From a virus, in the UHGV virus genome UHGV-0177678: DNA of 39,658 bases, one strand, 5' to 3'. The notes beneath the pieces were generated by a model. It had not been told where the DNA came from. It saw only the letters and a program-made list of their open reading frames with translations, and ran no database searches. Of the stretch, positions 1-30,829 are shown piece after piece. Made by a program: the position numbers and the translations under genes. Every line of letters begins with the position of its first letter. Positions within the stretch are counted from its first letter, which is position 1.

Positions 1-191
1 CCAAGAAACGAAATAATCGCGAATATCGCCTGTTTCCATATCTGGTGCGGCTCAGACGTCAACACATAGAGCGCAGCACCTCCGAGAGAGAAAAGCATTA
101 CGCCGGGAGTGGCTTCGGGGAAAAGGGTAGCAAGCGTCACCCCCACAGTCCCGGCAGCAAACCCACCAGCTACAGTTAATGGATCAGACAT
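1..191 (-). CDS. Lysis-cassette membrane protein, N-terminal part (putative holin or antiholin). It is cut by the window edge and reads in frame into 39451..39658 if the ends are joined.
   Basis: Start at 191 (CAT at 189-191 on the plus strand), translating MSDPLTVAGGFAAGTVGVTLATLFPEATPGVMLFSLGGAALYVLTSEP... with two hydrophobic helices. The frame is open down to nt 1. It sits just upstream of the second lysis membrane protein and the endolysin. Confidence 0.5.
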   Translation of the reverse strand, partial: MSDPLTVAGGFAAGTVGVTLATLFPEATPGVMLFSLGGAALYVLTSEPHQIWKQAIFAIISFL

Positions 192-266
192 ATGATTTCC
201 GTGTGTAGGGTTCAGGCTATCGGACTGGATTTAACACAAAGTACGTCGAGGATGATTCCCGTAGCC

Positions 267-300
267 TGAAAAAGAAGCCCGCCGAAGCGGGCAAAATGAG
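267..300 (-). terminator. Rho-independent terminator closing the late moron operon.
   Basis: GCCCGC (277-282), loop cgaa, GCGGGC (287-292). On the minus strand the stem is followed by UUCUUUUUC. It lies between the methyltransferase stop at 308 and the holin start at 191. Confidence 0.6.
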
Positions 301-307
301 GGTTAAC

Positions 308-922
308 TCAAGTACGCCTGAAAGCATAAGTACCAACACCTTTGCGCCCGAGCTCACACTCTATATTGTTGTGCTCCACGCATTCGAAGCCCTGCTCTGC
401 AAACCAGCGCCTGATACCTTCATCAGTGAAATACCAGATGTGCTCGTTCTTTCTGAAATGATGGGAGCGGAGAATGTCTCCGGCATCAGTGAAAATCGGG
501 ATCGACACGAACACGTATTCACTGGCCTGCTGTACCGCCAGCTCTGGCTCGTCGATGTGTTCCAGTACATCCCACATCGTCAGTGCTCGCCACTTATTGG
601 CGTAGAGATCTGCGAATGCGCCCCGCTCGTTCAGCCAGGCAATACCAGCCGGATTAACGTCATACCCAAGCGTTCCCGGTCGGGTAGAGACGAACTGACC
701 GGCACCGATACCAACGTCGAGAACAGGGCCGTGAAAATGCCGCTTCACCAGATCAATACGGGATTGCGTTAAAGCTCTGCCCGTTTCGGTTTCGGCCAGC
801 TCCTGATACTTCGCGAAATACTGCTCATCATACGGACGTGATGCCGGAACGGGATAACGTCCGATCCCCAGCTCCGGTAAAAATACCAGCCCGCTTTCCA
901 GTTCCTGATAAAACGACTTCAT
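308..922 (-). CDS. Class I SAM-dependent methyltransferase.
   Basis: Motif I VLDVGIGAG downstream of the chosen start MKSFYQELESG (CAT at 920-922). Last gene of a tightly packed four-gene minus-strand operon. Family assigned from motif recall only. Confidence 0.55.
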   Translation of the reverse strand: MKSFYQELESGLVFLPELGIGRYPVPASRPYDEQYFAKYQELAETETGRALTQSRIDLVKRHFHGPVLDVGIGAGQFVSTRPGTLGYDVNPAGIAWLNERGAFADLYANKWRALTMWDVLEHIDEPELAVQQASEYVFVSIPIFTDAGDILRSHHFRKNEHIWYFTDEGIRRWFAEQGFECVEHNNIECELGRKGVGTYAFRRT

Positions 923-1769
923 GGAGCCAGGCCTCGAATTTATCGGAGAAATTTGAAATCCGCTTGTCGCAGTGGTGATCCCATGCTTCACAGCGGCAGT
1001 AATTGTCGGGAATTGCCCAGCCAACACGAGAAAGGTCCATCGCCGGATCAGTTACGATTTCCGGGGCGTTGTGACCACCTCGCCCACCAGCGACAACGTA
1101 CACCGGCGTTTTATAGGCAATAGCAGCAGGAAGCGCCCAGCCCACTGGCGTAACCACCATGGCGGCATGCTCAATCAGGCGCATCAGCGATTTGAAGTTG
1201 AGCTGGCCGGAGTGCATGCGCAGATCTGCTTCGGGAAGTTCTCCGACGGCCCACTCCTCCCCCTCCTGCAGGTCAGCCACACTGATTACGCAGAAATGCT
1301 TTCTCAGTATCCGGGATGCCTGCAGCAGGTAATCCGGATCAGGATTACGGGAGTCACTGCGCCATTCGCTGCGAACAGTTGCCGGACGAATTACCGCGAT
1401 CGGCTTTTCCGACGTAAATTCAGCGGGTCCGTAAGACGGCAAATCAAGTTCTGACGGCTCGGTGCCAAACTGCTGGCGCATCGCGTCAAATATTGAACCG
1501 CGTCGTAGATGATCCGGACCGTAGAAAATCCGCTTTGTCTGGCGCATATCTGGCGGCAGGTGAAAAGTGGCCTGCGTCCGGTACTCGTTTTTGCGCTGCG
1601 TCCTGAGCGTTGTAAAGCTGCGAACGGGCAGAACGGGCAAATCTTCATACAGTTCAGGCCAGGCGGTCCGAATATAACTACCGGCAGGCAACTGCTTAAC
1701 GAAAGCACGCTGGTAGATGTTGTCACCCATGCCCAGCATGCCATCAATGAATAGAGGAACGTTTAACAT
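828..1769 (-). CDS. GT-B-fold glycosyltransferase resembling family GT9 (heptosyltransferase-like).
   Basis: N-terminal GMGDNIY parallels the WaaC/WaaF SMGD/VGDM motif. C-terminal LIEHAAMVVTPVGWALPAAIAYKTPVYVVAGG parallels the GT9 motif LI..A..VT.DSG..H.AAAL..P.V.LYGP. Overlaps the methyltransferase by 95 nt and the upstream gene by 7 nt. Confidence 0.45.
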   Translation of the reverse strand: MLNVPLFIDGMLGMGDNIYQRAFVKQLPAGSYIRTAWPELYEDLPVLPVRSFTTLRTQRKNEYRTQATFHLPPDMRQTKRIFYGPDHLRRGSIFDAMRQQFGTEPSELDLPSYGPAEFTSEKPIAVIRPATVRSEWRSDSRNPDPDYLLQASRILRKHFCVISVADLQEGEEWAVGELPEADLRMHSGQLNFKSLMRLIEHAAMVVTPVGWALPAAIAYKTPVYVVAGGRGGHNAPEIVTDPAMDLSRVGWAIPDNYCRCEAWDHHCDKRISNFSDKFEAWLHEVVLSGTGKRAGIFTGAGDRTLSRSGITSV

Positions 1770-2314
1770 GCTACCTCGCGTAATGCCTCATTGAGGCCGA
1801 GACGCCGGAAGCACTTAAGCGCTGTCTGGCGGCTGCTGTTGATGATATTTACCTTACCGCCCAGCGCTCTGGCAGTATTGGCAAACTCCCCGCGCCACCG
1901 CGTAACGCCCTCTGCTGTTGGGTTATCCAGATCGGCGTGATCGCCATGCCAGTGACTGCCGCCATTAATGGAGCAGTCAAACCCTAACAGGATGATGTTT
2001 TTCGCCCCCAGACTGGCAGCAAACAGAATTGAGCGCTGCCCGGAGTTGAAGGCCCACCGGGTATCTGTATCAAACAGATTTAGCCCATAGCGTTTATGAG
2101 CCCGGTAATTACAGGTCCAGCGAGAGGCGGAGGACGGCAGAACATCGATGTTTGCATCCCACCAGCGCAGATCACCCGCGTAAATGTATTCACAATCAGG
2201 CACGGCTCGCCAGGTGGAGTTAACAGCAATAACCGGCAGCCCCGATCCGGAGATCAGTTCGCAATCTGCTTTATTGAGGGATGGGCCTGATGCACAAATG
2301 ATGAATGTATTCAT
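1763..2314 (-). CDS. DUF115/Maf-like (MptE-like Rossmann) protein, putative nucleotide or sugar transferase.
   Basis: N-terminal FIICASGPSL resembles the G-x-GPSL motif recalled for DUF115/motility-accessory-factor proteins. 183 aa. Sits in the operon with the GT9-like protein and the methyltransferase. Confidence 0.3.
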   Translation of the reverse strand: MNTFIICASGPSLNKADCELISGSGLPVIAVNSTWRAVPDCEYIYAGDLRWWDANIDVLPSSASRWTCNYRAHKRYGLNLFDTDTRWAFNSGQRSILFAASLGAKNIILLGFDCSINGGSHWHGDHADLDNPTAEGVTRWRGEFANTARALGGKVNIINSSRQTALKCFRRLGLNEALREVAC

Positions 2315-2321
2315 GCATGCG

Positions 2322-2645
2322 CTACTTAATTTTATCTACCCATTCGCGCCAGCGCGCCTCGCGTATTTCAGGGGGCAACCGCTGGTCTTCAAAATGATTA
2401 GACAGATTTATTGAATCTGGAAGCAACGCCCAGGCAACATAGAACTCATGCGGCTCGAACTCGCCACCAGCAAACTCGTATGCACCGACATGGTAAACTT
2501 CACCATCTTCTTCGAATGCCAGTACGTGGGCAATATGCCAGCCATCGCAGGGGTTAAGCAGAAGAACCCATTTACCGTCGAGCTCCTGCGTCAATTTTTC
2601 ACTGGCAGGACGAAAAACCAATTGCTCAGTAATTTGTTGAGACAT
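2322..2645 (-). CDS. Small acidic hypothetical protein, first gene downstream of Q.
   Basis: Chosen start MSQQITEQLVF (CAT at 2643-2645) preceded by GGAG. The longer ORF-track start at 2828 would run into Q and the promoter region. 107 aa. Confidence 0.45.
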   Translation of the reverse strand: MSQQITEQLVFRPASEKLTQELDGKWVLLLNPCDGWHIAHVLAFEEDGEVYHVGAYEFAGGEFEPHEFYVAWALLPDSINLSNHFEDQRLPPEIREARWREWVDKIK

Positions 2646-2760
2646 GCAGGCTCCAGAAACGTCAAAGCCCCACCATTTCTGGCAGGGCTCGATTATTAAG
2701 CGTTGTGTCGAAGTGACCACTCTTAACAGGATATTCCGTTTTTTACGTACGTAAACACTT
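2646..2760 (-). promoter_or_regulatory. Putative late promoter and qut region with a tR'-like hairpin.
   Basis: 115-bp non-coding gap immediately 3' of Q on the minus strand. It holds TTTACG-16nt-TATCCT and TAATAAT-like elements, the palindrome TTTACGTACGTAAA, and an interrupted hairpin GCCCTGCCA-GAAA-TGGTGGGGC followed by a UUUGACGUUU tract (about 2657-2688). Confidence 0.3.
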
Positions 2761-3168
2761 TTATTTACCAGCCACCAATTTAACTTCTGGCTCCCGCGAT
2801 ACATATCTGTCCATCTCAAGCCGTACATCGAGCATCATCAACATACCTTCAACTACCCCTTCAGCTTTCTGAAGTTTTTTCCCAATATGACCGTCAGAAC
2901 AGGCATGTTTACGGGCCAGCGCCATAAAGGTCATGCCCATCACATAATAATCCACCAGCAGATCATGCAGGTCCTGGTTATTTTTATTCAGCCTGGCGAT
3001 GCACCCGCAGATAACCATTGCATCATCATCACAGCATTGTGGCCGCGATTTTACCCTCGCCGGAATGAGTCCTTTAAATCCAGCAGCAATAGAAGCCCAC
3101 GTAACATCTTCATTATTATTGGCTGCCCACGCTCCCCAGCGCTCTAATACCTGTTGGATGTCCCGCAT
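2761..3168 (-). CDS. Q: Late antiterminator Q of the phage 82/21/QuuD family.
   Basis: [34 protein letters not shown]...[18 protein letters not shown] closely matches the remembered QuuD/Q82 N-terminus and its Cys-rich zinc motif. Its start overlaps the primase stop (TAATG). Confidence 0.8.
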
Positions 3169-4142
3169 TATGCCGCCTCTTTTTGTTTCTTGTAGAAGAC
3201 CAGCTCACGAACCTCATCGCCATTCATGAGCATATCGTTAAAGTCACCGTTGTCCGGCCAGCGTACGCTGACTTTCACAAGGTCATTTTTCGCCAGCAGA
3301 TTGGCGTGGGCGCACTCAAACGCCGCCGCCTGACCGGTGGCAGAATGCTTGTCCATGTCAGCGAAAACGATCAGATGTTTTACCCCTGCCGGCACCCGGA
3401 ATTTTTTCATGAAATTGCTGTTCATGACCGCCCAGGTATTCACGCCATAAATCTGATAGCAGGAGAGCGCAGTTTCGATCCCCTCTGCGATCCCCAGCGT
3501 TGAGGACACGGGAAACATGCGAATGGCAACTGAGCGGGCGTATTCGAGGTAGTTGTCTTCCTGCAGGGATTTTTGCCGTTTGGCGCTTTCGCCCAGCGGC
3601 GCTTTCCGATCCCCTTCGAGCAAGGTCCGGTGGAGATAGCACAGCTCACCTTTATCATCGGTGGCAAGAGCATAGAGAGCATGATAAATCCTGCCTGCAT
3701 GGCGCTGCTTTTCGCAGAACCGGATCGCCTCAGAGGGTAATTTGTTGATCCCGCGCTGGCGCAAATAACCTTCCCCGTTGGTACCGCGCAAGGGCAGCAG
3801 CTTCGCGAATTTACTGATGGCGCGCTGGCGTAGCTTCGCCGCCGAGCTGTTGGCCGGGATTTTCTCCCGGCGGTAGTCATTGCCAATGAGCTGATCAACC
3901 TCCGCGCAGAGTGCTGAGAAAGTCTTCCCGGTTTGCGTGAGGGAGAGTAGTTTCATGCCGTCGCCGCTGCCACAAACGCAGATCCACGTCCCGGCACCGT
4001 CGCGGTCGTCAATGCGAAACTTGCTGCGTGCGCCGCATACCGGACATTCTCCCTTGTAGTGATTTTTCCCTGTTATCGGCGGCAAGCCGTAATGTTCAAG
4101 AATTTCCGTCCAGCGGCCTTTTGCCGCTTCTGCTGTCTTCAC
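3168..4142 (-). CDS. DNA primase with an N-terminal zinc ribbon and a Toprim domain.
   Basis: CPVCG...CVCGSG zinc-ribbon motif. Toprim signatures IAEGIETAL and FADMD. GTG start whose GTGA overlaps the helicase stop. Confidence 0.65.
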
Positions 4143-5761
4143 GCTGTTCTTCTCCCCAGCATACTACGAATGTTTTCAACCTTTTGTTTTGCGCTGATAA
4201 TCCGGCTTGTGGTGGCCGGACTGTCGGCGGGCTCACCCGCCTTGCTGTCGGCCTTCTCCCGCCCCTTCGCAAATTTGATGAGTTTGTGCCTGATGTAGTT
4301 GTTTACCTCCGGGGTAATCTCCATCGGAAAATCGCTCAGCCCGTTGGGCCATTCATTGAACTTTTCGCGGAATGTATGCGCACACCAGCCGTCGCTGATG
4401 GGTTTCCCCATCGAAGTGCGCTGGCGCTGATAGAATTTGATCTGGCTCCACCAGGACTGTTTGTCCGATTTGGTGTAAACCTTTTCGCCCTTGCTGAGCT
4501 TTTTGATATTGCGTTGCGTGTCGGTTTCCACATCCTCGCCGACCAGCGGTTTAAATCCGCATTTCGGGCAGACGTAGACACCTGCAGGCTTCATGAAATG
4601 ACACTCCGGGCATTCCTTCGGGAGTTTTTCCTCCCGTTCTTCGGATATGCGAGCTGCAGCTTCTTTCATCCCGTCGTTTTTGGAAGGAAGATCGTTGTAC
4701 TCGATGGCGTCAGGAAATCCCAGGCGATGGACGGTACCGCTGTGATCGAAGATAAGGCAGGCATCTTTTCCCGGGGCAGTTCGCAGACCACGGCCCAGCG
4801 CCTGAAGCCAGCGAATTTCGCTTTTTGTCGGTCGGGCGTAAATGATGCAACGAACGTCACTGTCGAAGCCCGCCACCAGTACGCCGACGCTGACGATGAT
4901 TTTTGTAGCGCCCGTCTCAAAACGGTGGATCATCAGCTGTCGTTCTTCGTGCGGCGTTTCAGCCACCATGACTTCGGCGTTAACACCGGCTTTGTTGAAC
5001 TGCATAGTGACGTAATTGGCGTGGGCCTTATTGACGCAGAACGCCACCGTCGGCAGGTCACGGCCATTACGCAGCCAGTTATCGACAATATCACCCACCA
5101 GATCGGAGCCGCACATAATCTCCGCCAGCTGTGCTTCGTCGTAGTCGCTGCCATACTCCATCGAGGCTTTTGTCTTAACGCCTTTCAGATCCGGTTTAGT
5201 TGGCGCGAAAAATTCGTAATTACTCAGATCACCGCGCTGAATAAGTTCTCCGATAGTGGTCGGCTTAATCAGACGCTGGTAGTAATTCCCCAGGAAGGGT
5301 GAAAACGGGGTTCCGGACAGGCCAATAACCTTCGCTTTGGTTTTTGTGGTGATCCGTTCAATCTCTTTAAGGATGCGGCGTTTGCGCAGGTGGGCTTCAT
5401 CCACAATCAGCAGATCGATATCCTGAGGAAATTCGCGGCGGATCAGCGTGTCAGCGCTGGCGATCTGAATCTGCAGGCTGGGGTCATAGTTCGGATGGTC
5501 GCGCCAGATAAAGCTGATCTGGTCCTCCGGAAGGCCATACTGAGCGAAGCGCTGCGCCGTCTGGTTAATCAGGATGGTGTAAGGGGCGACAAACAGAACG
5601 CGCATACCACGACTTACCAGACCAGCAGCAACGAAAGCAGCCAGACCAGTTTTGCCGCTGCCGGTGGGCATATACATCATGAAAGATTCGTATGCCTTCC
5701 AGTCACAGCGCAGCATATTGAGTGCGCGTTCCTGTGCAAAATTCGGTGTGATGTTCAACAT
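4139..5761 (-). CDS. SF2 DEAD/DEAH-box helicase with a C-terminal Cys4 zinc ribbon, putative replicative helicase.
   Basis: Walker A PTGSGKT. Motif II LIVDEAHL. C-terminal CPECH...CPKCG. ATG at 5761 (MLNITPNF) preceded by GGGG. The ORF-track start at 5767 is a TTG. Confidence 0.7.
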   Translation of the reverse strand: MLNITPNFAQERALNMLRCDWKAYESFMMYMPTGSGKTGLAAFVAAGLVSRGMRVLFVAPYTILINQTAQRFAQYGLPEDQISFIWRDHPNYDPSLQIQIASADTLIRREFPQDIDLLIVDEAHLRKRRILKEIERITTKTKAKVIGLSGTPFSPFLGNYYQRLIKPTTIGELIQRGDLSNYEFFAPTKPDLKGVKTKASMEYGSDYDEAQLAEIMCGSDLVGDIVDNWLRNGRDLPTVAFCVNKAHANYVTMQFNKAGVNAEVMVAETPHEERQLMIHRFETGATKIIVSVGVLVAGFDSDVRCIIYARPTKSEIRWLQALGRGLRTAPGKDACLIFDHSGTVHRLGFPDAIEYNDLPSKNDGMKEAAARISEEREEKLPKECPECHFMKPAGVYVCPKCGFKPLVGEDVETDTQRNIKKLSKGEKVYTKSDKQSWWSQIKFYQRQRTSMGKPISDGWCAHTFREKFNEWPNGLSDFPMEITPEVNNYIRHKLIKFAKGREKADSKAGEPADSPATTSRIISAKQKVENIRSMLGRRTA

Positions 5762-6393: not shown

Positions 6394-6652
6394 TTAAAAC
6401 AGACTGTTCTGTCCCTTACGGGAGACGCGCTTCTTTCCTGCGCTACGTTCAGCCAGTGTTGTCTGTCCAAGGGCCCACTGCCGGGCACGGAAAAGACAAT
6501 CAGCGAACATGCTTCCCTTCCGGCTGGCCTGAGAACAGCGCCGATAATAATCAGCGCCATATTCAGCCCCCCCCCCTGGCGATCTCCGCCGGAAAGCCTT
6601 CACCTACCAGCGCATCCGTGATGTGCTTTTTGATAAATTCTTCCGGTGACAT
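6394..6652 (-). pseudogene. Early gene split by a G10 homopolymer tract (frameshifted or phase-variable).
   Basis: ATG at 6652 gives MSPEEFIKKHITDALVGEGFPAEIARGGG and stops right after the ten-G run (plus-strand C run at 6567-6576). The +1 frame continues as AEYGADYYRRCSQASRK...GQNSLF to 6394. Nine Gs would fuse the two parts into an 86-aa protein. Confidence 0.45.
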
Positions 6653-6653
6653 G

Positions 6654-6872
6654 TCACGCTCCAAACTTGTTCGCGGAGGATTGATAAATATCTGGGCGCA
6701 GTTCTGATCTTGTAATCACCCCAGCAGTCTCTTGCTCAAGCCGTATTGCGAGGTTGAATCCTGCGTTTTTATGCCCGTTAAAAACTAAGCGTAAATAGTC
6801 CCGCGTGGAGCCAACACTTTCAGCTAGATGGGTCTGCTGCTCTTTGGTTAATGAGTTCCAGTACGCTTTCAT
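6654..6872 (-). CDS. Cro-like HTH regulator (YdaS/Cro family).
   Basis: MKAYWNSLTKEQQTHLAESVGSTRDYLRLVFNG... with an HTH. GGAGG RBS. Diverges from the repressor gene across an operator-bearing intergenic region. The ORF-track start at 6944 lies inside that intergenic region. Confidence 0.6.
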   Translation of the reverse strand: MKAYWNSLTKEQQTHLAESVGSTRDYLRLVFNGHKNAGFNLAIRLEQETAGVITRSELRPDIYQSSANKFGA

Positions 6873-6961
6873 TCGATGTACCTCCGTGGTACATATTACA
6901 TCAAAATAATGAACCGTAAAGGAACTTGTACCGCACGGATACAACCTGAGAGAATAACCGT
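6873..6961. promoter_or_regulatory. Immunity-switch operator and promoter region (OR-like).
   Basis: Leftward PR candidate TTTACG-16nt-TAATAT with the half-site GGTACAT over its -10. Rightward PRM candidate TTGTAC-17nt-GAGAAT whose transcript would start at or near the repressor ATG (leaderless, as for lambda cI). Inverted CCGTGGTAC...GTACCGCACGG. Confidence 0.45.
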
Positions 6962-7636
6962 ATGAAAACTGTTCATGAAATCAGGCGTCTAAACGCCAGA
7001 AAATTACGAGATGGTGTTGGTGGAAACTCATTTTTTGCCAACATGATCGATCGTGAGCCTACTCAAACCAGTCGGTTTATGAGCGATGGTGCAACCAAAA
7101 ACATTGGTGATGCTATGGCAAGACACATTGAAAAATGTTTCGACTTGCCTCTTGGATGGCTAGATCAAGAGCACCAAACAACGAATGTTGCAAAAAATCC
7201 AGATGTTTCAGATACTAATAGAAATATTCGGATGGTCCCCGTCATCTCGTGGGTACAAGCTGGCGCGTGGACAAAGGTGGATGAACAAGAGGTTGATTTG
7301 TACAGCACTGAAACCTATCCATGCCCTGTGCCATGTGGGCCGATGACTTATATCCTCAGGGTTATAGGTGATTCTATGATTGAGGAATACCGCCCGGGAG
7401 ATATGATATTTGTTGATCCTGAGGTACCTTCTGTTCATGGTGATGATGTAGTTGCCTTGATGCATGATAGCGGTGAAACGACTTTCAAAAGACTTATAGA
7501 AGATGGTGGCAGTAGGTACCTCAAGGCACTCAATCAAAATTGGCCTGAGCCATATATAAAAATTGATGGAAACTGTTCAATCATTGGAACTGTTATATTT
7601 TCAGGAAAACCAAGAAGATACAGAAACAAACCATAA
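6962..7636 (+). CDS. cI/LexA-like repressor with an S24 peptidase autocleavage domain.
   Basis: N-terminal HTH region. C-terminal catalytic Ser in GDSM and Lys in TFKRL, as in LexA and lambda cI. Confidence 0.8.
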   Translation: MKTVHEIRRLNARKLRDGVGGNSFFANMIDREPTQTSRFMSDGATKNIGDAMARHIEKCFDLPLGWLDQEHQTTNVAKNPDVSDTNRNIRMVPVISWVQAGAWTKVDEQEVDLYSTETYPCPVPCGPMTYILRVIGDSMIEEYRPGDMIFVDPEVPSVHGDDVVALMHDSGETTFKRLIEDGGSRYLKALNQNWPEPYIKIDGNCSIIGTVIFSGKPRRYRNKP

Positions 7637-9942: not shown

Positions 9943-10520
9943 TGGTTGATTCAACGTTTAACCCAGAGCCGACATCAACCGGCATCCGTTTTGGTAACCG
10001 CGTTATTGGCTATTCCGTTGCGGTTCGCCAGCTCGACAACGGTAATTATGACAAACGAATTCCGGATGGATTAGATCTGCTGGCTTGCATCATGGAAGCG
10101 ATTGAAAGCGGCTGGTTTACCCCGGGCATCGAGAAAGAAATCATCATTTGGCGCTGGATGCTGGTTGCCGTCTTCATTGCCGAGGAGCAGGCAAAGAACG
10201 GCACGGTTGAGGTTGCCAACGATTCTGGAGGGTTTGATACCGCAGTTATCTACTCAGGCCAAAACGGTTCAATCAGTGTTTATCCCGCGCCAGAGCGGTT
10301 CGCACTCGCAAGCTATGTGGAAGGGTTAGCCATTGAGAAATACGGTCAGGAACTCGGCCAGCAGATGGCGCTGCGCATGTACCGGGACATGTTAGATACG
10401 GACGCTGAGAACGGGCTTCGACTCTCAAAAATGGGCCGGGAGGGTTTCAATCTCCTGCATGACAGCTTCATTGAACAGATTCAGAAAGAAGGTATGCCTG
10501 ACATGCCGGTTATGCACTGA
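9942..10520 (+). CDS. Hypothetical early protein (192 aa).
   Basis: ATG overlaps the upstream TGA (TGATG). MVDSTFNPEPTSTGIRFGNR... Confidence 0.45.
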   Translation: MVDSTFNPEPTSTGIRFGNRVIGYSVAVRQLDNGNYDKRIPDGLDLLACIMEAIESGWFTPGIEKEIIIWRWMLVAVFIAEEQAKNGTVEVANDSGGFDTAVIYSGQNGSISVYPAPERFALASYVEGLAIEKYGQELGQQMALRMYRDMLDTDAENGLRLSKMGREGFNLLHDSFIEQIQKEGMPDMPVMH

Positions 10521-10531
10521 GGAGGACGAAA

Positions 10532-11281
10532 ATGAACACTGTAACGATCAATAACAAACAGCTGCCGGCAGTCGAATATCGCGGTCAGCGCGTTGTGACG
10601 CTGGCGATGATTGATGAAGTCCACCAGCGACCGGAAGGAACCGCTCGTGCAGCATTTAATCGCAACAAAGACCGCTTTGTTCGTGGTGAGGATTATGAAG
10701 AATTAGGTGCAGACACCATACGTACGGACCTTCCCGTTGGCGTTTTTTCGAAATTTGCGCCATCAGGAATTGTCCTCTTCGAATCAGGCTACCTGATGCT
10801 GACGAAACCATTTAACGATGATCTGGCCTGGAAAGTACAACGCGAGTTGGTAAGTGGTTATTTCCGTCATCAGCAACCGCAACCATTGACTGAAATCGAA
10901 ATGATCGCCGCAATGGCCGCCGATGCCGTTCGCCAGCAAAAACGCCTGAATCATGTTGAAGAGCAGATCGAAACGGTCACCGAAGCGGTGGAGAACATCA
11001 AGCGCGGCACCATGCGAGCCGGATATGTCGGTTACCGCCAGGTGGTAGCCAAAAGCGGAATGAGTGACGCCAAGTGCCGGAATTTGGTCAATGCCTACCG
11101 CATCCCGACAGACACGCACGAATTTATGACTCCAGACGGGCTATTGTCACGTAGGGCTATTGTCGAACTGGAGCCGTTTATGGCCGCATTTCGCCAGATG
11201 ATGTCAGAAGCTGAACCGCGCGGCACCCGCTGGTATCACCCTAAAATGGGCTTGTTCCAAGCGATCGGCTGGGAGGGGTAA
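10532..11281 (+). CDS. ORF6N/Bro-N-like domain protein, putative antirepressor.
   Basis: YRGQRVVTLAMIDEVHQRPEGTARAAFNRNKDRFVRGEDY resembles the ORF6N/KilA-N-type antirepressor N-terminal domain. Confidence 0.45.
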   Translation: MNTVTINNKQLPAVEYRGQRVVTLAMIDEVHQRPEGTARAAFNRNKDRFVRGEDYEELGADTIRTDLPVGVFSKFAPSGIVLFESGYLMLTKPFNDDLAWKVQRELVSGYFRHQQPQPLTEIEMIAAMAADAVRQQKRLNHVEEQIETVTEAVENIKRGTMRAGYVGYRQVVAKSGMSDAKCRNLVNAYRIPTDTHEFMTPDGLLSRRAIVELEPFMAAFRQMMSEAEPRGTRWYHPKMGLFQAIGWEG

Positions 11282-11283
11282 CG

Positions 11284-11706
11284 GTGAAAAATAATGAAAT
11301 ATGGAATCCGGCTGGCTCTGTTGAGCTGGCCCACCAGCAAGCTCTGACATGCGTATCTGATGCCTACCTGTTCCATCTGGTCAGCCTGCACCGTCGCCCG
11401 GTATATCGTCACAAGTACGGTGATATTTCGCTTAACCAGCCAGCGCTACGGGGCTTTATTGATTCGTACCTCGCTGATAAGGGATGGAGTATGGAGCGTC
11501 GCCGGGCGCATTACATCCGGATGCTGGACCTGATCAAATATATGCATCGCAGCAATGCGGACTTCGTCGATTGGGGAACTGTGCCAGCTCTAAACCCAAG
11601 GGGCATCCGCTGGATGAATGCCTGTTTCTCAAGGATGGGAGAGATGGTTAATAGTTTTGGCGGGTGGAATAACGTCGTGGCGAACGCAGACAGCGAGGTG
11701 AAATGA
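11284..11706 (+). CDS. Hypothetical protein (140 aa).
   Basis: GTG start preceded by GGAGG. Confidence 0.4.
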   Translation: MKNNEIWNPAGSVELAHQQALTCVSDAYLFHLVSLHRRPVYRHKYGDISLNQPALRGFIDSYLADKGWSMERRRAHYIRMLDLIKYMHRSNADFVDWGTVPALNPRGIRWMNACFSRMGEMVNSFGGWNNVVANADSEVK

Positions 11707-12059
11707 TGGACCGTGCAATGATCAAGACCGACTCCCTGAACACAATTGGGGAATGCCTCGAGCAGCTGGCGCTGGCCGAAGAAGGCCTTATCGCAATCGA
11801 CGGCCAACTGTTAAAGCATGATGCCGATCAGGCTTGGCGCAAGCGGGCAGAGAATGCCCGCCGGACCATTGGGCAAAAGAAGCGAATCATCACCGCTCGT
11901 TTATCTGTGCTTCGCCATCAGGAGAAAGAGCATAACCGGCAGATGCATCACACGCGTGACAGCTATCTGATTGCAGAGCTGCGGGAGATTGTCACGCCCT
12001 CTTCTTTCCTGCGCTGCGTACACCGCGCAGAAACAAAGCTGGAGGCCGCCAGTGAGTGA
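11703..12059 (+). CDS. Hypothetical protein (118 aa).
   Basis: ATGA overlap with the upstream stop. Confidence 0.4.
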   Translation: MMDRAMIKTDSLNTIGECLEQLALAEEGLIAIDGQLLKHDADQAWRKRAENARRTIGQKKRIITARLSVLRHQEKEHNRQMHHTRDSYLIAELREIVTPSSFLRCVHRAETKLEAASE

Positions 12060-12384
12060 ATCCAACTTGTTTGAATTGGTGGCGCTGATCAAGGCAGCAA
12101 AGAGCGATCCGTCAGCGATAGTCGATGCATTATGGGAGGCCGGTTATCGCCAGCCCGAAAGGAGCGAGAAGGAGGCGGCCAAAATAACTATCGACACCTT
12201 CTTCTACTGCATGGCGTTCGATATGCCGACAGATTTCTGGCCCCGCGATTATGACAGCGTTCTCCAGAATGAGCTGATGAAAGCAGTTATTGGTGAGGAT
12301 GGAGAGCTGGCCTACGCCACCGCCAGCGAAATAGCCAAAAGCGTTATCAACGCCGGATTTAGCAAGGAGGCCGCCAATGGGTGA
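12052..12384 (+). CDS. Hypothetical protein (110 aa).
   Basis: GTG start overlapping the upstream stop (GTGAGTGA). Confidence 0.35.
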   Translation: MSESNLFELVALIKAAKSDPSAIVDALWEAGYRQPERSEKEAAKITIDTFFYCMAFDMPTDFWPRDYDSVLQNELMKAVIGEDGELAYATASEIAKSVINAGFSKEAANG

Positions 12385-12446
12385 AATGGTCGATTTGAAT
12401 AATGCGTGGTGCCGCTGCCGTGGTCTGAGTGTGATGTGAGGTGATT

Positions 12447-12641
12447 ATGAGCGATTTAATGACAACAAAACAGGTGGCCGATTACTGCGGAGTTTCGGTG
12501 TCAACGGTGCTGCGCTGGAACAGCATCAACGGTAAAACCGGCCAGAAGTACCGCCCCGAGTTCCCGGACCCGGATATAAAATCCTGCCCAAATAAATGGG
12601 CGGCACATAAAATTCACAGGTTCGCCGGAGTTATCCAGTAA
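12447..12641 (+). CDS. AlpA-family HTH protein, putative excisionase or regulator.
   Basis: MSDLMTTKQVADYCGVSVSTVLRWNS... fits the AlpA/Xis HTH pattern. GAGG RBS. Converges on and overlaps the integrase 3' end. Confidence 0.6.
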   Translation: MSDLMTTKQVADYCGVSVSTVLRWNSINGKTGQKYRPEFPDPDIKSCPNKWAAHKIHRFAGVIQ

Positions 12642-13836
12642 CGAGAGACTCCACCCGATCCCACCACGCCTGATAGGCTTTGCGTTGTTCTTCCATGTAA
12701 TCGCTCTTGTCATAAACTTGCCAGACACCTGGCAGTTTATGACCGAGCATTATTTCAGCAACGTGTGGCTCTGTCAGATCAGAAAAATTTGTTCTCGCCG
12801 TTCTTCTCAAATCGTACAGTGACCAGTGTGGGAACTGATACCCCAGCCGCCGCCACGCATATTTCGTCAGGTTATACGGTAATGACTGTAATGACGATCT
12901 GCCAACCGGCTCCCGGCTATTCTCTTTCGTGAATACCATGACTGAGCCATTATTCATGGAAATAGCATATTTCACTAACTCTTCGACTGGCCCGATAATT
13001 GGGCGCTTGAGTGGCTTCCCAGTTACCGCTCCCGTTTTATGCCGCTCAGCTGGAACCGTCCATACCTTGCTGACCAGATCGAAATCACTCACTCTGGCCC
13101 CAATCAGCTCAGCAGGCCGACAACCAAAGTGCAGCAGCAGCTTAATAAAGACTCTGTATTTGGGAACTAAGCGGGAGCCATCAACGGCACCGTATAGGAT
13201 CTTGATTTCTTCATGGCTCAGGAATCTTTCACCCTGACCTTTTTTGATGTCCATATCTTTGCTGGTTATATCGGATAAAGGCCGATTCTCCACCAGCTTT
13301 CTTTTGAAAGCCCATACGTGAGCCTGCTTTGCATTCACCAGTAGCCTATCAGCTATTCCAGGCAACCGATCGCTGATTGGCTCCAGTACTTCCAGCCAGT
13401 CGTGAAGACTGGCAATATCATGCGGCAAATTACCAATTTTTGGGAACAGGTGAATTTCGAAAGACCTGAGGATTTGCTCTGCGCCTTTCTTATTTTTCAG
13501 ACAGTAGGCGTCATACCAAGCCCTGATCACCGATTCAACGGTTAACGCGCCCGTGGCGCGACGTTTTTCAGCCATCCTGACTAACTTGGGGTTTCTGTTA
13601 GCCTCCAGCTCACCACGCAACCGGATCACTTCATCGCGAGCCTCTTTGAGACCGGTAGCAGGATAAGAACCAATATCGATACGCTCGCCTTTCCCGGCCC
13701 ACTGATAACGATATTGAAACACAACACGTCCTTTCGGTGACACTCTTACAGATAGGCCATCACGATCGGATTTTACCATTACCTTTTCGCGTTCCTTTCC
13801 TGAGACCGAACGCAACCATGTATCAGACAGCGCCAT
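12631..13836 (-). CDS. int: P4-type tyrosine integrase.
   Basis: N-terminal arm-binding (DUF4102-like) region. Catalytic H-x-x-R in HWSLYDLRRT and Tyr in VWQVYDKSDY. Adjacent to the attP-like repeats. Confidence 0.8.
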   Translation of the reverse strand: MALSDTWLRSVSGKEREKVMVKSDRDGLSVRVSPKGRVVFQYRYQWAGKGERIDIGSYPATGLKEARDEVIRLRGELEANRNPKLVRMAEKRRATGALTVESVIRAWYDAYCLKNKKGAEQILRSFEIHLFPKIGNLPHDIASLHDWLEVLEPISDRLPGIADRLLVNAKQAHVWAFKRKLVENRPLSDITSKDMDIKKGQGERFLSHEEIKILYGAVDGSRLVPKYRVFIKLLLHFGCRPAELIGARVSDFDLVSKVWTVPAERHKTGAVTGKPLKRPIIGPVEELVKYAISMNNGSVMVFTKENSREPVGRSSLQSLPYNLTKYAWRRLGYQFPHWSLYDLRRTARTNFSDLTEPHVAEIMLGHKLPGVWQVYDKSDYMEEQRKAYQAWWDRVESLVTG

Positions 13837-14295
13837 AAACCACCTTGTACAAACTTAAAAAATCATCTTCGGTTTGTACATTATGTACAAGCACATGTAC
13901 AGAATTTTGCTAAAAGCAATCGCATTAAAGCGTGATCAATTGAAAGGAGTTAAAGCGGATTAAAGTAATTAATCGTTGATACAGCAAGAATGGCAGGTGA
14001 TTTGTGAAAGGAGTTTGAAAAATCTGACAGGTTTTTATTTTACTTAATGAGGGGTGATTCGTGGGGGTGCGAGATAATGGCAAAGGTTCTTCGTTTGGCT
14101 ACCTCTGCGAGATAGGAGCTCATTGTCATGTTATTCAATTCCGTTATGTACAAACGCATGTACAAAGAAAATTTTATGCCCGTGATTGTACATTTTGCCG
14201 CTGCCTGAGCATAGCAGAACCTCACGCAAGACGGACACAACTTGACACTGTATAAATAACCAGATAAATGTTAACTGTATATTCAACCAGTATTA
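13837..14295. other. attP region with integrase arm-type repeats.
   Basis: At least seven copies of a TGTACA motif in both orientations (TTGTACAAAC, GTACATTATGTACAAGCACATGTACAG, TATGTACAAACGCATGTACAAAG, GATTGTACATTTT). The core crossover site was not identifiable. Confidence 0.5.
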
Positions 14296-14307
14296 TTGGA
14301 GGCAGTG

Positions 14308-14574
14308 ATGTTCGTTGAACTCGTCTATGACAAGCGTAATGTTGATGGGCTGGCGGGGGCCAGAGAGATCATCCTGGCAGAACTGACGAAGCGAGTGCAC
14401 CAGATTTTCCCTGATGCCGAAGTGAAGGTGAAACCGATGCAGGCGAACGGCTTGAATAGCGATGCCAGCAAAAGCGATCGGGAAAAGCTGAACCGCATGC
14501 TGGAGGAGATGTTTGAAGAGTCCGACATGTGGCTGGTTTCTGAATTCCCATCAGTCCGCCAAGTTGGACTGTAA
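14308..14574 (+). CDS. dinI: DinI-like protein.
   Basis: The C-terminal EEMFEESDMWLVSE matches the DinI signature ETWESADDWFVSE. GGAGG RBS, ATG at 14308. Confidence 0.6.
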   Translation: MFVELVYDKRNVDGLAGAREIILAELTKRVHQIFPDAEVKVKPMQANGLNSDASKSDREKLNRMLEEMFEESDMWLVSEFPSVRQVGL

Positions 14575-14702
14575 TATCTCGTAGGATTCAGCAAGATGAT
14601 GCTGAGGCGTCGATCTTATGTCGTGATGGTGGTAGCCTATGTACCTTTGAAAACTGACGTATAGATTATGCGGTTCTATCTTAGGATCGAGGTGAGCGAT
14701 AA

Positions 14703-14876
14703 ATGAAAATTTCCATATCATCTTTGTCAAAGTGGGCCGTTAGATTAGCTGGAAGTTTAAGCGCATTATTCCTTTTGACAGGAAAGTCATGGGGTGATAT
14801 GTCACTTGCTACCATCGAGGTCTTAGCAATCATCATGTGGGCAGAAACTGAATATAGATTTTTGAAGAAAAAGTAG
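14703..14876 (+). CDS. Small predicted membrane protein (57 aa).
   Basis: GAGG RBS then ATG. MKISISSLSKWAVRLAGSLSALFLLTGKSWGDMSLATIEVLAIIMWAETEYRFLKKK has two hydrophobic segments. AT-rich. Below the ORF-track cutoff. Confidence 0.3.
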   Translation: MKISISSLSKWAVRLAGSLSALFLLTGKSWGDMSLATIEVLAIIMWAETEYRFLKKK

Positions 14877-14934
14877 GTTTCTGGTTTTTAACTATATTTT
14901 TTAAGACAGTTACTATTTTTAAGGTTGTTCACAA

Positions 14935-16089
14935 ATGAATGTTTTTGTTGAATATGCGATTTTGTTTACTTTCTTAATAGGGTGCGGATTAATATTTTCC
15001 TTACCTAAGTTTGGTTTTGTGGATGACAAAGAAATTTCCAATACAAATCATAACACCCCAATGGATGCATTAAGATTTTTTCTTGCGTCTTTTGTATTCA
15101 TCAGTCATGAGATAGGTTTCTTTTATTATTTTACTGATGGTAAATTCACACATCCATTTGTTGGCATTAGTATGCTTTCGCATGTTGGTGTGGCTTTATT
15201 TTTCTCTATTACAGGGTATCTATTCTGGGGTAAAATTAAGCGAGGCAGTGTAAATTGGATTTCTTTGTATAAAGGGAGATTCTTTAGAATAGTTCCTTTA
15301 GTATGGTTTAATTCATTACTTATTATTTTAATTGTTTGCTTTCTCTCTAGAGAAATGCCAAGCATGAATGCATTACACTGGTTTGACTTTATAAATAATC
15401 ACCGCCCTGATTTTACATCATATAAAGAAACATTTATGTTCACGGCTGGTGTATTTTGGACTCTTGCTTTTGAGTGGGGTTTTTACATAGCTCTTCCTGC
15501 CTTATCGTTGATTGTAAAAAGATCTTTTGAATTCAGCATGTTCTTTGTGTTCGTTCTCGTTTACGCTTCTCCTTACATAACATTAAAAGTTCCTTTTAAC
15601 TTTTTTTTGTTTTTTGCTATAGGAATGCTTGCGTCAGACGTTGCGGAAAAAATTAACTTACAACAAAAACACTTTAATTTTATATTCATTTCCTCTTTGA
15701 TTGCTTTGTTATTTTGCGATGACAGAATTTACCGAGTTGACTCTTTCTCGAATGTTCTTTTGTTTTTAATCATACTTAGCGTAGCTAAAGGGGCAGATTT
15801 ATTTGGATTGCTTAGAATAAGAGGATTCAGGCGGTTGGGTGTCGCAAGTTATAGCATTTATGTAATGCATGCTTTCGTTATAATGTGTGTGTTCAAGCTA
15901 TTTAACTCGCTAGGTATCTTAAAAAACAATCCAATTACAATAATGCTACCTCTAAGTATTTCCGTACTGTATATTTCATTAATAACATACCATTTAATTG
16001 AGAAAAGATTCATGACCCTTGGTCGAGGGGTTAAATTTAACGCCCCCGCACTTACAGATAAAAATGCTAACCAAATAGAAAAGCCATAA
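14935..16089 (+). CDS. Acyltransferase_3 family membrane protein, a lysogenic-conversion candidate.
   Basis: 384 aa with about ten predicted TM helices. The N-terminal RFFLASFVFISHE and the overall architecture are typical of Oac/OafA-type acyltransferases; the O-antigen acetylase role is inferred. About 33% GC, well below the genome average. Confidence 0.65.
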   Translation: MNVFVEYAILFTFLIGCGLIFSLPKFGFVDDKEISNTNHNTPMDALRFFLASFVFISHEIGFFYYFTDGKFTHPFVGISMLSHVGVALFFSITGYLFWGKIKRGSVNWISLYKGRFFRIVPLVWFNSLLIILIVCFLSREMPSMNALHWFDFINNHRPDFTSYKETFMFTAGVFWTLAFEWGFYIALPALSLIVKRSFEFSMFFVFVLVYASPYITLKVPFNFFLFFAIGMLASDVAEKINLQQKHFNFIFISSLIALLFCDDRIYRVDSFSNVLLFLIILSVAKGADLFGLLRIRGFRRLGVASYSIYVMHAFVIMCVFKLFNSLGILKNNPITIMLPLSISVLYISLITYHLIEKRFMTLGRGVKFNAPALTDKNANQIEKP

Positions 16090-16090
16090 A

Positions 16091-16120
16091 AAGAGGGGGG
16101 TACCCCTCTTTCATTTCTTG
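16091..16120. terminator. Bidirectional intrinsic terminator.
   Basis: AAGAGGGG-ggta-CCCCTCTT stem with T-runs on both strands. It ends the plus-strand acyltransferase transcript and the minus-strand late transcript after the fibre assembly gene. Confidence 0.65.
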
Positions 16121-16129
16121 ATATATATA

Positions 16130-16531
16130 TTAAGTGGCAGGAATTTCGGGCCATGTAATATCTGGCGCAGTTGATGTATCAACAGCCTCCAGTGCATCCA
16201 TATAGTCCAGCCATTCATTAAATGACTGCTTATCCTCATCAGACAGGCGTCCAAGTGCCAATTTCGAAGGCCACTGGTTGCTATCGATATAGTTATTGGC
16301 ATCATTGATTAATGACTGCTTTTGGTTTTCTGCCTGCTCAACAAGCTCTTCATGCGTAGGTTCTGGCTCAGGCGGAGCTTTAAACTCTTTGCCGTCATAA
16401 CTCCAGCCGATACCAACGCCGAGCCCATCAATGTTTACAGTCTCATACCCTTCAAAAATATTTCCCTCGCCATCCCACACGACAGTATTTACGACCTGCC
16501 CGTCCTTAATCAGTGCATAAATAGACATCAT
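16130..16531 (-). CDS. Tail fibre assembly protein (Tfa, lambda Tfa/P2 gpG-like).
   Basis: MMSIYALIKDGQVVNTVVWDG start. C-terminal DSNQWP...DITWPEIP is typical of the Tfa family. Its ATG overlaps the fibre gene's TGA. The longer ORF-track start at 16780 falls inside the fibre gene. Confidence 0.65.
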   Translation of the reverse strand: MMSIYALIKDGQVVNTVVWDGEGNIFEGYETVNIDGLGVGIGWSYDGKEFKAPPEPEPTHEELVEQAENQKQSLINDANNYIDSNQWPSKLALGRLSDEDKQSFNEWLDYMDALEAVDTSTAPDITWPEIPAT

Positions 16532-17484
16532 GCATACTCCTCGATAATGACAATACCCGAAGAACCCGCTCCACCAGCCACTGCCGTGGTGCCATTCACG
16601 TATGTGGTTGCCGCGCCTGCCCCCCCGGCACCATAACCTGTTCCAGAACCCGGCACGGAATTGTTTGTGAGTGCGTATCCACCGCCGCCGAGCACTGAGT
16701 TTCCCCCACGTCCCCCCTTTGCCGAGGATGTTGTTGTCGTTCCACCTGCCGTACCTGTTGCAAAGGACATTTGCCCCCATCCCCCCTCACCCGGAACATT
16801 CAGCAGGACACTGGAACCAGAACAATCAGCGGTTTGAGCTAAATCAGGCACCAGACTGAAAGTAGCTGTTCCCGATGCACCGTAATTTCCTCCAGCACCT
16901 CCGGGCGCGGAGATAAATGTACCGAATGATGATGCTCCACCGGATGTACCGTTCCCGCCAGCTGAACTGGTGCCAGCTGATCCAACGGTAACCGCAACTG
17001 AAGATAAAGAACTGGCATCAATCAGGCCCGTTTCACCATAAGTTCCCGCAGAGCCGCCATGCCCCGCGGCTAATGTCCCGGATGAGGTAGAGGCGGCAGC
17101 ACCACCACCAGCCCCGCCTCCACCGACGATGCGAACCCTGATTTTCTTCGTGCCCGCTGTTGGTGTATACGTTCCACTCGCAGTGAAAGTACGAACGTTC
17201 AGCAGACGACCATTTGTATTGGCTTTCAGGGCATTGAGAAAATTGGTCAGAACTACGGATGTGTTTCCGTTATCAAGAACGTCCTGGCCGGTACTGTCTG
17301 CGATGAATTGTCCGATAACGCTTGCCATCACCGTTCCCTGACGAAGGGCTTTATTCACCTGCGCACTCGCAGCTTTCCCGGACTGAAATCCTGTAAGTAG
17401 TGCGGTTAAGGCTTCCCAGTCTGCTTGCGACATGACGTTTGCGCCCGCGCCTGTAGCGAAAGGTTTGAAGTTATTTGTTGCCAT
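16528..17484 (-). CDS. Tail fibre, Gly/Ser/Thr-rich.
   Basis: Start MATNNFKPF; its ATG shares one nucleotide with the upstream TAA (TAATG). Long low-complexity GGGAGGG/SGT-rich middle section. Confidence 0.6.
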   Translation of the reverse strand: MATNNFKPFATGAGANVMSQADWEALTALLTGFQSGKAASAQVNKALRQGTVMASVIGQFIADSTGQDVLDNGNTSVVLTNFLNALKANTNGRLLNVRTFTASGTYTPTAGTKKIRVRIVGGGGAGGGAAASTSSGTLAAGHGGSAGTYGETGLIDASSLSSVAVTVGSAGTSSAGGNGTSGGASSFGTFISAPGGAGGNYGASGTATFSLVPDLAQTADCSGSSVLLNVPGEGGWGQMSFATGTAGGTTTTSSAKGGRGGNSVLGGGGYALTNNSVPGSGTGYGAGGAGAATTYVNGTTAVAGGAGSSGIVIIEEYA

Positions 17485-18164
17485 TAAAGTAATTTCCCCC
17501 ATGCTCCTACATCGAACCCGCCGATGTATTCATTGTCCAAATCAAACCCAAAGAATTTAGAGCCCTCGGATGGTGTTTCTATCGAAGGCGTTTCAACATC
17601 ACCGGCCCAGACGCCAGCAGCTTTTACAGTCAGGTAGCCCTGTTTGATAGCGGCGATCAGTTCGAGAGACACATCAGAAATATCAGTCTCGGGAAAAACC
17701 CAGACCGAAATCGTCATGTCCTGGTTGTCGACGATCTGCATCTTCAGGCCAGAGCCTGCAGTCGCAGCGTCAAGAATGGGCGGCAGGGAATCGTTGCGGC
17801 CGTCCCAGTTGTTGATAGCGATTTTTGCTTTCAGAATGATGCGGTAGGTGTCATCACTCAGCGAGGTATAACCGGAATCAGGGTCATACGGCCCTTGCCA
17901 CACACCCTGGTCATATCCAAGCCCGTCGGTGTCCCAACTGAAATAAACACCTGTAATCGGCTGGCTGATTATGCGGCTACGTCCGATCCAGAGCCCGAGG
18001 GTATCAAGCTGAACGCCTACAGCTGTGTCGATGTCAAACGCGCTAACCAGCCCCCGAGTGGCTGATGTGATGTCAATCAGCGGCCGGGTGCTCAGGTCGA
18101 TGTGATCAAAGTATTTCGGTCTGGTGGCGTGGTAGTTAGTGATTAAGTCTGTGTACTTGCTCAT
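17484..18164 (-). CDS. Baseplate protein in the Mu gp48/P2 gpI-like position.
   Basis: Sits between the J-like gene and the fibre. 226 aa. Confidence 0.5.
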   Translation of the reverse strand: MSKYTDLITNYHATRPKYFDHIDLSTRPLIDITSATRGLVSAFDIDTAVGVQLDTLGLWIGRSRIISQPITGVYFSWDTDGLGYDQGVWQGPYDPDSGYTSLSDDTYRIILKAKIAINNWDGRNDSLPPILDAATAGSGLKMQIVDNQDMTISVWVFPETDISDVSLELIAAIKQGYLTVKAAGVWAGDVETPSIETPSEGSKFFGFDLDNEYIGGFDVGAWGKLL

Positions 18165-30325: not shown

Positions 30326-30829
30326 TCAGATGTTATAAGCGATTTCAATACGGCCGTCGGCTTCACCCGGCCCCATGACCTCTGCATTTGGCAGCTGAGG
30401 TGTATTTGATGCGGTAGAGTCCGGAGACAGCACAAAGGAGCCAACCGGGCTTTGAGTGGTGCCACCAGCCACGCGAACGTAAACCGGATCGCCTTTTTTC
30501 GCGGTCGCCGCGTTACCTGCGGTAGCAGTTACGCAGATGTAACCGCGTTTCAGGTTGTCACCAACCTGATTAACCGTCACACCAATGTAAGCAAGGTCCA
30601 GAGCAGAGGTAATCGGGAACGGTCGAACCAGAATCCCTTTCACTTTGCTGATAGTGTCGCCTGATTCCAGCGGAACGAATTTATCGTTCACGTATTTACC
30701 CGGCAGCCCGTAGGACGCGAACTGCTTCGTGTAGTCCAGGCTTACTGGCTCGATGGTGAGATCACGAGGACGGGTAACGCCCCCGGCAATGCCCAGGGGC
30801 ATGCGCGTTAAATATGCAGTACCTGCCAT
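30326..30829 (-). CDS. Head structural protein.
   Basis: 167 aa ORF immediately upstream of the capsid gene. Confidence 0.4.
   Translation of the reverse strand: MAGTAYLTRMPLGIAGGVTRPRDLTIEPVSLDYTKQFASYGLPGKYVNDKFVPLESGDTISKVKGILVRPFPITSALDLAYIGVTVNQVGDNLKRGYICVTATAGNAATAKKGDPVYVRVAGGTTQSPVGSFVLSPDSTASNTPQLPNAEVMGPGEADGRIEIAYNI

Follow-up and report, generated by a model that had tools for sequence, protein, structure and literature searches.

The 39,658-nucleotide (nt) virus genome UHGV-0177678 (UHGV), referred to here as the window and the reference for all positions given, carries on its minus strand, between a Q antiterminator gene and the lysis genes, four open reading frames (ORFs) that lie exactly where an earlier sequence-only reading of this DNA had placed them. 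These encode, in order of transcription, a small acidic protein (107 residues; 2322-2645), a protein resembling Maf and sialyltransferase catalytic domains (183 residues; 1763-2314), a GT9-like glycosyltransferase of predicted GT-B fold (313 residues; 828-1769) and a class I S-adenosylmethionine-dependent methyltransferase (204 residues; 308-922). The stop codon of the Maf-like gene and the start of the GT9-like gene overlap by 7 nt (ATGTTAA), and the GT9-like and methyltransferase ORFs overlap by 95 nt. Each of the four proteins has a PHROG match, with E-values from 5.5e-61 to 4e-111 (phrog_17248 for the small protein, 5.5e-61; phrog_6564 for the methyltransferase, 3e-82), and, judged by sequence conservation, the ORFs are real genes rather than chance ORFs. 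The reading that we favour, with middling confidence, is that the last three genes encode a late-acting cytoplasmic system that O-glycosylates virion proteins, with the methyltransferase modifying the sugar.

The four genes had initially been taken as a single unit; comparison with related loci points instead to a three-gene module preceded, in the window, by an unrelated and sporadic small ORF. Of 523 IMG/VR loci encoding a GT9-like relative, 80 were fetched, together with Escherichia coli prophages, cultured phages and metagenomic contigs, and all of their ORFs were clustered. In 84 of 88 loci the gene immediately preceding the GT9-like one is the Maf-like gene, and in 81 of 88 the methyltransferase gene immediately follows the GT9-like gene; the exceptions look like products of locus truncation, frameshifting or noise in ORF calling. 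The order Maf-like, GT9-like, methyltransferase holds without change over about 85 fetched loci. The small gene is present, among about 88 loci, only in the window and in loci L019 and L022. Its product has no match in Pfam, NCBIfam or PADLOC (the latter two matched none of the four proteins), and tblastn found no match to it in GenBank phages. Thus, given the restriction of the small gene to three loci and the fixed order of the other three, the conserved unit is the Maf-like/GT9-like/methyltransferase triad, the small protein being an accessory passenger.

The assignment of the product of 1763-2314 to the DUF115/Maf-like proteins, proposed previously from a short motif, holds at the level of the predicted fold. 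The protein scores below the gathering threshold of PF01973 (MptE-like/DUF115; 32.4 versus 34.6 bits), a family for which precomputed matches are present in most of its homologues, and its predicted structure has the central Maf/sialyltransferase-like fold with nucleotide-sugar motifs. The profile of its family can be aligned collinearly to Cst-II over two stretches (SGPSL to GNGPSL, and NSG..GFD to TSG..GID), each of the two matches being weak alone. The invariant S91 and D113 of the family are 22 residues apart; in CbMaf and GkMaf, a catalytically required Ser and Asp/Asn are 23 residues apart (bioRxiv 10.1101/2020.06.03.131540). The protein is the Maf catalytic core alone, i.e. whereas Maf itself (DUF115/PF01973, PDB 5mu5) has about 630 residues, the 183-residue phage protein comprises only the central catalytic domain, without the flanking Maf domains. 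It also differs from Maf in genomic context, which is a phage late operon in place of a flagellin setting, and in possessing an HWHGDH motif that is specific to the phage family when compared with Maf and with the GT42 enzymes Cst-I and Cst-II.

A different role for this fold would be that of a pyrophosphokinase of the MptE/thiamine-pyrophosphokinase type, in which case the trio might act in small-molecule or nucleotide-sugar metabolism, including anti-defence, by making or destroying a soluble metabolite late in infection. Enzymes of this type are, however, a weaker structural match for the Maf-like protein, and we regard such a role as decidedly unlikely.

Three homologues of the Maf-like protein are of interest with respect to annotation. 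The PAJU2 homologue (ORF010, at 6450-7019 of locus L007, 45% identity) is annotated as 'structural protein' in GenBank AP009624.1, so the Maf-like protein may be carried in virions. The homologue in phage D3 (4944-5662 of L008) aligns over 5117-5647, across the overlapping annotated genes orf6.5 and orf7, and the annotation may split or mis-start the gene. In the E. coli DX6 prophage (7444-8013 of L001), where the annotated ORF has 97 residues, the match lies in two frames (residues 1-105 and 103-183), such that a frameshift or decay of the gene is probable; this prophage also has a frameshifted endolysin gene.

The GT9-like protein is less readily placed. It has 539 homologues, yet no Pfam family is matched at E ≤ 0.1, PF01075 and NCBIfam included, and HMMER searches of the sequences in the PDB with either the protein or its family profile gave nothing at E ≤ 10. 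An AlphaFold model built with 42 homologues has high predicted confidence (predicted local distance difference test score 91.7), with a catalytic N-lobe beginning at residue 6 and disorder limited to residues 291-313. The model has a two-lobe GT-B fold that is nearest to GT9-type structures, the top match being TibC (about 11% identity), followed by WaaF and WaaC. G15 and D16 of a GxGD motif (GMGD) are invariant at the start of helix 1, a position resembling those of SMGD13 in WaaC and VGD13 in WaaF, the N-lobes having been left unaligned by hhalign; C258, C260, H265 and C267 are also invariant, forming a CxCx4HxC cluster late in the C-lobe. Comparison of the family profile with E. coli WaaC (E 0.69) and WaaF (E 0.0055) by hhalign is not significant in either case, and in these weak alignments a Val in a (P/G)VGWxxP motif, such as GVGWxxP, occupies the position of D261 in the WaaC-type D(T/S)GxxH motif. 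Consequently, the protein has not been filed in GT9, and membership of PF01075 was considered and rejected, the Pfam model likewise failing to match. The earlier assignment as a GT9 enzyme therefore stands with respect to predicted fold, not with respect to sequence, and the closest structural relative is one that glycosylates proteins. A profile search of 1.84 billion representatives recovered only 871 clusters; thus the family is discrete, and its profile seems not to extend into GT9, a family of far greater size.

TibC is a protein heptosyltransferase that acts in the cytoplasm on Ser residues of an autotransporter, employing Asp110 as catalytic base; its iron finger, built on four Cys residues, makes contact with the substrate as well (PMC4358343). 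An N-terminal β-barrel, of 97 residues in TibC (PMC4358343), is present in TibC/AAH (BAHT, PDB 4rap), enzymes also marked by a β-hairpin thumb and a dodecameric assembly, and absent from the GT9-like protein, which has 313 residues compared with 406. The iron-finger ligands of TibC (Cys339, Cys342, Cys358 and Cys370) are spread over about 30 residues (PMC4358343), whereas the CxCx4HxC cluster of the phage family is at roughly the same place with other spacing and other ligands. With WaaC and WaaF (CAZy GT9, PF01075) the GT9-like protein is predicted to share the GT-B fold, though it differs from them in lacking a PF01075 match and the D261 residue, and in being encoded in phage late operons.

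The last approximately 23 residues of the GT9-like protein, which are predicted to be disordered and are encoded within the 95-nt overlap with the methyltransferase gene (828-922), are fast-diverging among relatives of 313 residues and absent from most members of the family, which have about 287 residues; this extension seems to reflect loss of a stop codon and not a working tail.

The methyltransferase assignment holds at the level of Pfam, the protein matching Methyltransf_23 above the cut-off (46.2 bits versus 27; 5.3e-12) and carrying the motif I sequence VLDVGIGAG (GxGxG) on which the assignment was originally based. No informative match was found among the sequences in the PDB. The sequence has no DPPY-type motif.

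Natural fusions confirm a functional link among the components of the triad. The Maf-like and GT9-like domains are fused in P0069 and, judging by N-terminal extensions of approximately 130-290 residues, many other family members would also be Maf-like/GT9-like fusions. A true Pfam Glyco_transf_9 domain is fused to the GT9-like domain in P0280 (3.9e-20) and in P0235, LicD is fused to it in P0217, and a methyltransferase in P0252. Every fusion partner is a glycan-assembly enzyme, and a glycan-building system, as suggested by the sequence-only reading, is the best interpretation of the module. In the metagenomic protein P0280 (1032 residues), an intein (Intein_splicing and LAGLIDADG_3) is located between the Glyco_transf_9 and GT9-like domains. 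An expanded version of the module is present in locus L094, where 10001-13848, directly after a gene for a protease-capsid fusion, encodes a LicD/GT9-like fusion, a Methyltransf_24 protein, a cytidylyltransferase, a second LicD and a Methyltransf_23 protein; this arrangement suggests phospho-alcohol decoration of the same glycan, e.g. of the choline-, glycerol- or ribitol-phosphate type.

With respect to expression, the gene upstream of the cluster (2761-3168, minus strand) is confirmed as Q by a full-length match to Pfam Phage_antitermQ (5.4e-54; also phrog_79). Between the Q gene and the cluster's first gene is a σ70-like site, TGGTCA-16 nt-AATAAT (2719-2692, minus strand), which is a candidate late promoter of the pR' type, followed by a 9-bp hairpin (2689-2666) and a U-rich tract, a candidate tR'/Q-engagement region. 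By consensus scan alone, promoter-like sites are at chance level (2 found versus 3.0 expected); the evidence from conservation is that the site and hairpin are both kept after the same Q in L019, L022, L054 and L082, irrespective of the gene that follows, the Maf-like gene coming directly after them in L054. The hairpin folds at -21.6 kcal/mol, and in L054 and L082 one compensatory change, from G-C to A-U, is present. The layout (Q, promoter-like site, early hairpin, late genes) is that of a lambdoid Q-dependent late operon, and the sequence fits the earlier proposal that the cluster, lying downstream of Q, is expressed late in infection.

The position between Q and holin is shared with Stx and other cargo of lambdoid phages, which also lies downstream of Q and of pR'/tR' and upstream of the holin gene, with expression expected only after induction. 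The sequence-only reading had described the cluster by this slot, which proves to be one of three late positions in which the triad is found. In type A (54 loci, and the window once its ends are joined) a late regulator, either this Q or another antiterminator, is followed by the triad, holin, endolysin and spanin; in type B (21 loci) the order is lysis genes, triad, terminase, portal; and in type C, comprising distant relatives at 30-50% identity, the triad is within the head/neck block. Thus, unlike Stx cargo, the triad is not tied to the slot, is elsewhere embedded in morphogenesis genes, and is not a moron of the host-directed toxin type; its varied late placement is that of a late morphogenesis accessory rather than of toxin-like cargo.

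The type C arrangements are informative in this regard. In D3, the Maf-like gene is directly after the major head gene, and the GT9-like and methyltransferase genes (orf12 and orf13) are between the head-closure and tail-terminator genes; in PAJU2 all three genes follow the head-tail adaptor gene. A Phage_capsid gene, confirmed by Pfam, precedes the triad in L125 and L133; in L147 such a gene precedes the Maf-like gene, with the GT9-like and methyltransferase genes three genes further on. Multidomain versions are immediately after the capsid gene in L093, L094 and L095. The GT9-like and methyltransferase genes of cyanophage BUCT-ZZ01, which is T4-like, are two genes past the neck gene gp14. 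Further carriers with the module in the head/neck block are L004-L006 and Mulvp2, and HK97-like prophages are among the type C loci.

The module is not peculiar to the phage in the window, given that the classical phage D3 carries it; cultured carriers are D3, PAJU2, PMG1 and Mulvp2. A near-identity DNA search with positions 1-3200 gave no match among GenBank phages. Of 5426 complete E. coli genomes, 10 match this region; in 9 of these the match takes in all three enzyme genes, and in no case does it extend over the small gene or Q. A scan of a genome collection for host range, made with a narrow search pattern, returned 10 loci. The hosts of the carriers are almost all Proteobacteria.

This host range, the hosts being nearly all lipopolysaccharide (LPS)-bearing, raises the question of whether the target is the host envelope rather than the virion, i.e. 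whether heptose- or Kdo-like sugars (Kdo, 3-deoxy-D-manno-octulosonate) are transferred, in the infected or induced cell, to a lipid-linked glycan such as the inner core of LPS and then methylated. Receptors would thereby be masked, sparing progeny from loss on debris, or other phages would be excluded. Phages do remodel LPS, and D3 converts the serotype of its host; moreover the LPS heptosyltransferases WaaF and WaaC are, after TibC, the structures nearest to the GT9-like model. However, the D261 motif of WaaC is absent, and placement argues against a conversion role, because known conversion genes adjoin int/att and are expressed in lysogens, a position in which the triad was never found. 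It is instead always part of a late operon, frequently flanked by capsid and neck genes, and this applies to lytic phages of the jumbo and T4-like kinds too; LPS made in the minutes before lysis would barely alter the cell surface. In the window, the conversion slot is occupied not by the triad but by an Acyl_transf_3 gene. Overall, modification of the envelope appears unlikely.

The Acyl_transf_3 gene (14935-16089, plus strand; Pfam 6e-27) encodes a membrane protein and is located in an island of low GC content (14000-16100, 32-38%), with the tail-fibre genes on one side and the integrase gene on the other. It is probably a lysogenic-conversion gene of the O-antigen acetylase type.

DNA is the sole component common to all carriers, and it could be that phage DNA is glycosylated and methylated before packaging as a protection against restriction, in the manner of Mu Mom or the phage 5-hydroxymethylcytosine (5hmC) glycosyltransferases. 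There is precedent in that phage GT-B enzymes transfer heptose or Kdo to 5hmC using E. coli metabolites, with some of the clusters being near structural genes (bioRxiv 10.1101/2023.12.21.572611). Such chemistry needs a hydroxymethyl-pyrimidine handle, and the known sugar-hypermodification clusters combine a cytosine-5 methyltransferase, a TET/5mYOX enzyme and a glycosyltransferase; scanning of the window ORFs with Pfam and PHROGs, which covered those of fewer than 110 residues in the early region in part, revealed no cytosine-5 methyltransferase, TET/5mYOX or deoxynucleoside monophosphate hydroxymethylase. Further, the methyltransferase is of the Methyltransf_23 type and lacks the DPPY-type motif, the known DNA glycosyltransferases resemble T4 β-glucosyltransferase, BshA and MshA, not GT9 or TibC (bioRxiv 10.1101/2023.12.21.572611), and Maf-type enzymes are known only to act on proteins. 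We therefore consider DNA hypermodification to be highly improbable.

Glycosylation of virion proteins is favoured because the nearest enzymes glycosylate proteins, because the fusions link the triad to glycan assembly, and because of the predicted late expression and the adjacency to capsid and neck genes. By their predicted structures, both transferases appear nearest to enzymes that O-glycosylate proteins in the cytoplasm, the proteins in question being building blocks of extracellular structures. Thus, of the three candidate targets named in the sequence-only reading, synteny favours virion proteins, the LPS core and DNA being retained as rivals at lower confidence.

In the proposed mechanism, Q-dependent read-through would first allow the triad to be expressed with the late genes. 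The two transferases would then act in turn, in the cytoplasm, on Ser/Thr residues of a freshly synthesised protein of the virion (capsid, cement, neck or fibre) before or during its assembly, as their closest characterised relatives do (Maf on flagellin, TibC on autotransporters), after which the methyltransferase would cap or otherwise modify the sugar. Candidate acceptors in the window are the major capsid protein (29367-30314), the cement protein (30326-30829), the sheath and tube proteins and the fibre (16528-17502). More speculatively, the donors may be the host LPS-core precursors ADP-heptose and CMP-Kdo. Given that the triad includes no sugar-nucleotide synthesis genes and that its hosts are nearly all Proteobacteria, the donors could be these universal precursors, which would account for how the module could work in any proteobacterial host without bringing sugar-nucleotide genes of its own. 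Maf enzymes in E. coli can O-link Kdo from endogenous CMP-Kdo. In the phage studied here, the module would have moved to the slot between Q and holin, with the unrelated small gene inserted ahead of it.

Several observations weigh against the proposal that the virion is the target. The head and tail proteins of the carriers belong to several unrelated sequence families. The module is not always next to structural genes; in L098 and L099 it adjoins ribonucleotide reductase, and its neighbours in the jumbo phage Eowyn are uninformative. The capsid proteins encoded beside the module have no C-terminal extension, the Pfam capsid domain reaching their last residues. The identity of the donor is uncertain, because the GT9-like protein fails the Pfam GT9 model, its comparisons with WaaC and WaaF are not significant and Val replaces D261. 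A cyanophage host, to judge by the LPS of marine Synechococcus, may lack both heptose and Kdo. The literature searched contains no report of glycosylated D3 or PAJU2 virions.

Two possible acceptors were considered and rejected as general ones. A C-terminal capsid extension, as in mycobacteriophages, is absent from the adjacent capsid proteins. A collagen/GKDG-repeat protein encoded near the triad in D3-like and HK97-like phages occurs neither in the window nor in any of the close loci, and so is not a universal acceptor; it is, however, a possible glycosylation substrate in those phages. This protein is encoded in L005 (8119-9108), L006 (6103-6873), L007 (PAJU2 ORF007; 4724-5728), L146 (5370-6665), L153 and L137, mostly a few genes upstream of the triad and, in L137, further downstream, with most copies sharing a C-terminal domain (...GDGxTYGGxxWIAQ...).

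The functional precedent for phage-encoded glycosylation of virions is from mycobacteriophages, the glycosyltransferases of which decorate capsid and tail-tube subunits (Freeman et al. 2023, as cited in PMC12619734 and PMC12801897). The hosts there are Actinobacteria and the acceptor sites are C-terminal extensions, which the capsid proteins beside the present module lack. In the literature searched, mycobacteriophages are the one group with documented phage-encoded glycosylation of virions, which in their case changes recognition by the immune system, and no study of the triad was found. Database records describe the triad proteins as hypothetical, 'alpha-2,3-sialyltransferase', 'GT9' or 'methyltransferase'. 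The individual types of chemistry, i.e. protein heptosylation, glycosylation by Maf and the glycans of mycobacteriophage virions, are already known, while the combination of enzymes, its broad distribution across phages with Gram-negative hosts and its late/structural setting seem to be uncharacterised.

A broader proposal, which we advance tentatively and at less than middling confidence, is that virion O-glycosylation is practised by many of the tailed phages that infect Gram-negative bacteria, D3 among them, through a dedicated module of three enzymes. This module would draw on the host pools of the LPS-core precursors ADP-heptose and CMP-Kdo to build a methyl-capped di- or oligosaccharide on the capsid, neck or fibre. 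If this is the case, phages of Gram-negative bacteria would have a virion glycan coat, made by enzymes without sequence kinship to characterised glycosyltransferase families. Virion glycosylation would be extended to phages of Enterobacteriaceae, Pseudomonas and other Proteobacteria, which are those most used in therapy and commonest as prophages of pathogens, with consequences for how antibodies recognise them, how stable they are, whether they adsorb to debris and which hosts they infect. Two uncharacterised enzyme families would also be defined, one being a minimal Maf-like domain and the other a TibC/GT9-like family without a Pfam model; both might serve in protein glyco-engineering in E. 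coli. With cultured carriers available, the question of glycosylation is directly testable.

Past the methyltransferase gene, the intrinsic terminator noted previously is present (267-292, minus strand), with a stem of 6 G-C pairs closed by a TTCG loop (GCCCGC-TTCG-GCGGGC, 292-277) and followed by TTCTTTTT. Only a subset of related type A loci have a terminator at this point, and it was rejected as an integral part of the module.

The lysis genes are downstream of the cluster, as had been stated, once the ends of the window are joined. An ORF that begins at 191 on the minus strand leaves the start of the window at position 1 and resumes in frame at 39658, ending with a stop codon at 39451. The window therefore represents a genome, either circular or circularly permuted, that has been cut within the lysis cassette. 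This first gene of the cassette encodes a membrane protein of 132 residues, the E. coli match to which (H10) is annotated as 'putative holin', and overlaps the start of the next gene by ATGA; the order thereafter is a holin with three transmembrane segments, lysozyme and spanin. Between the spanin gene and the small terminase gene there is a second tyrosine recombinase gene (37116-38129, minus strand; Pfam Phage_integrase 3e-15), the family of which (cluster 29) recurs at the same place in many related contigs.

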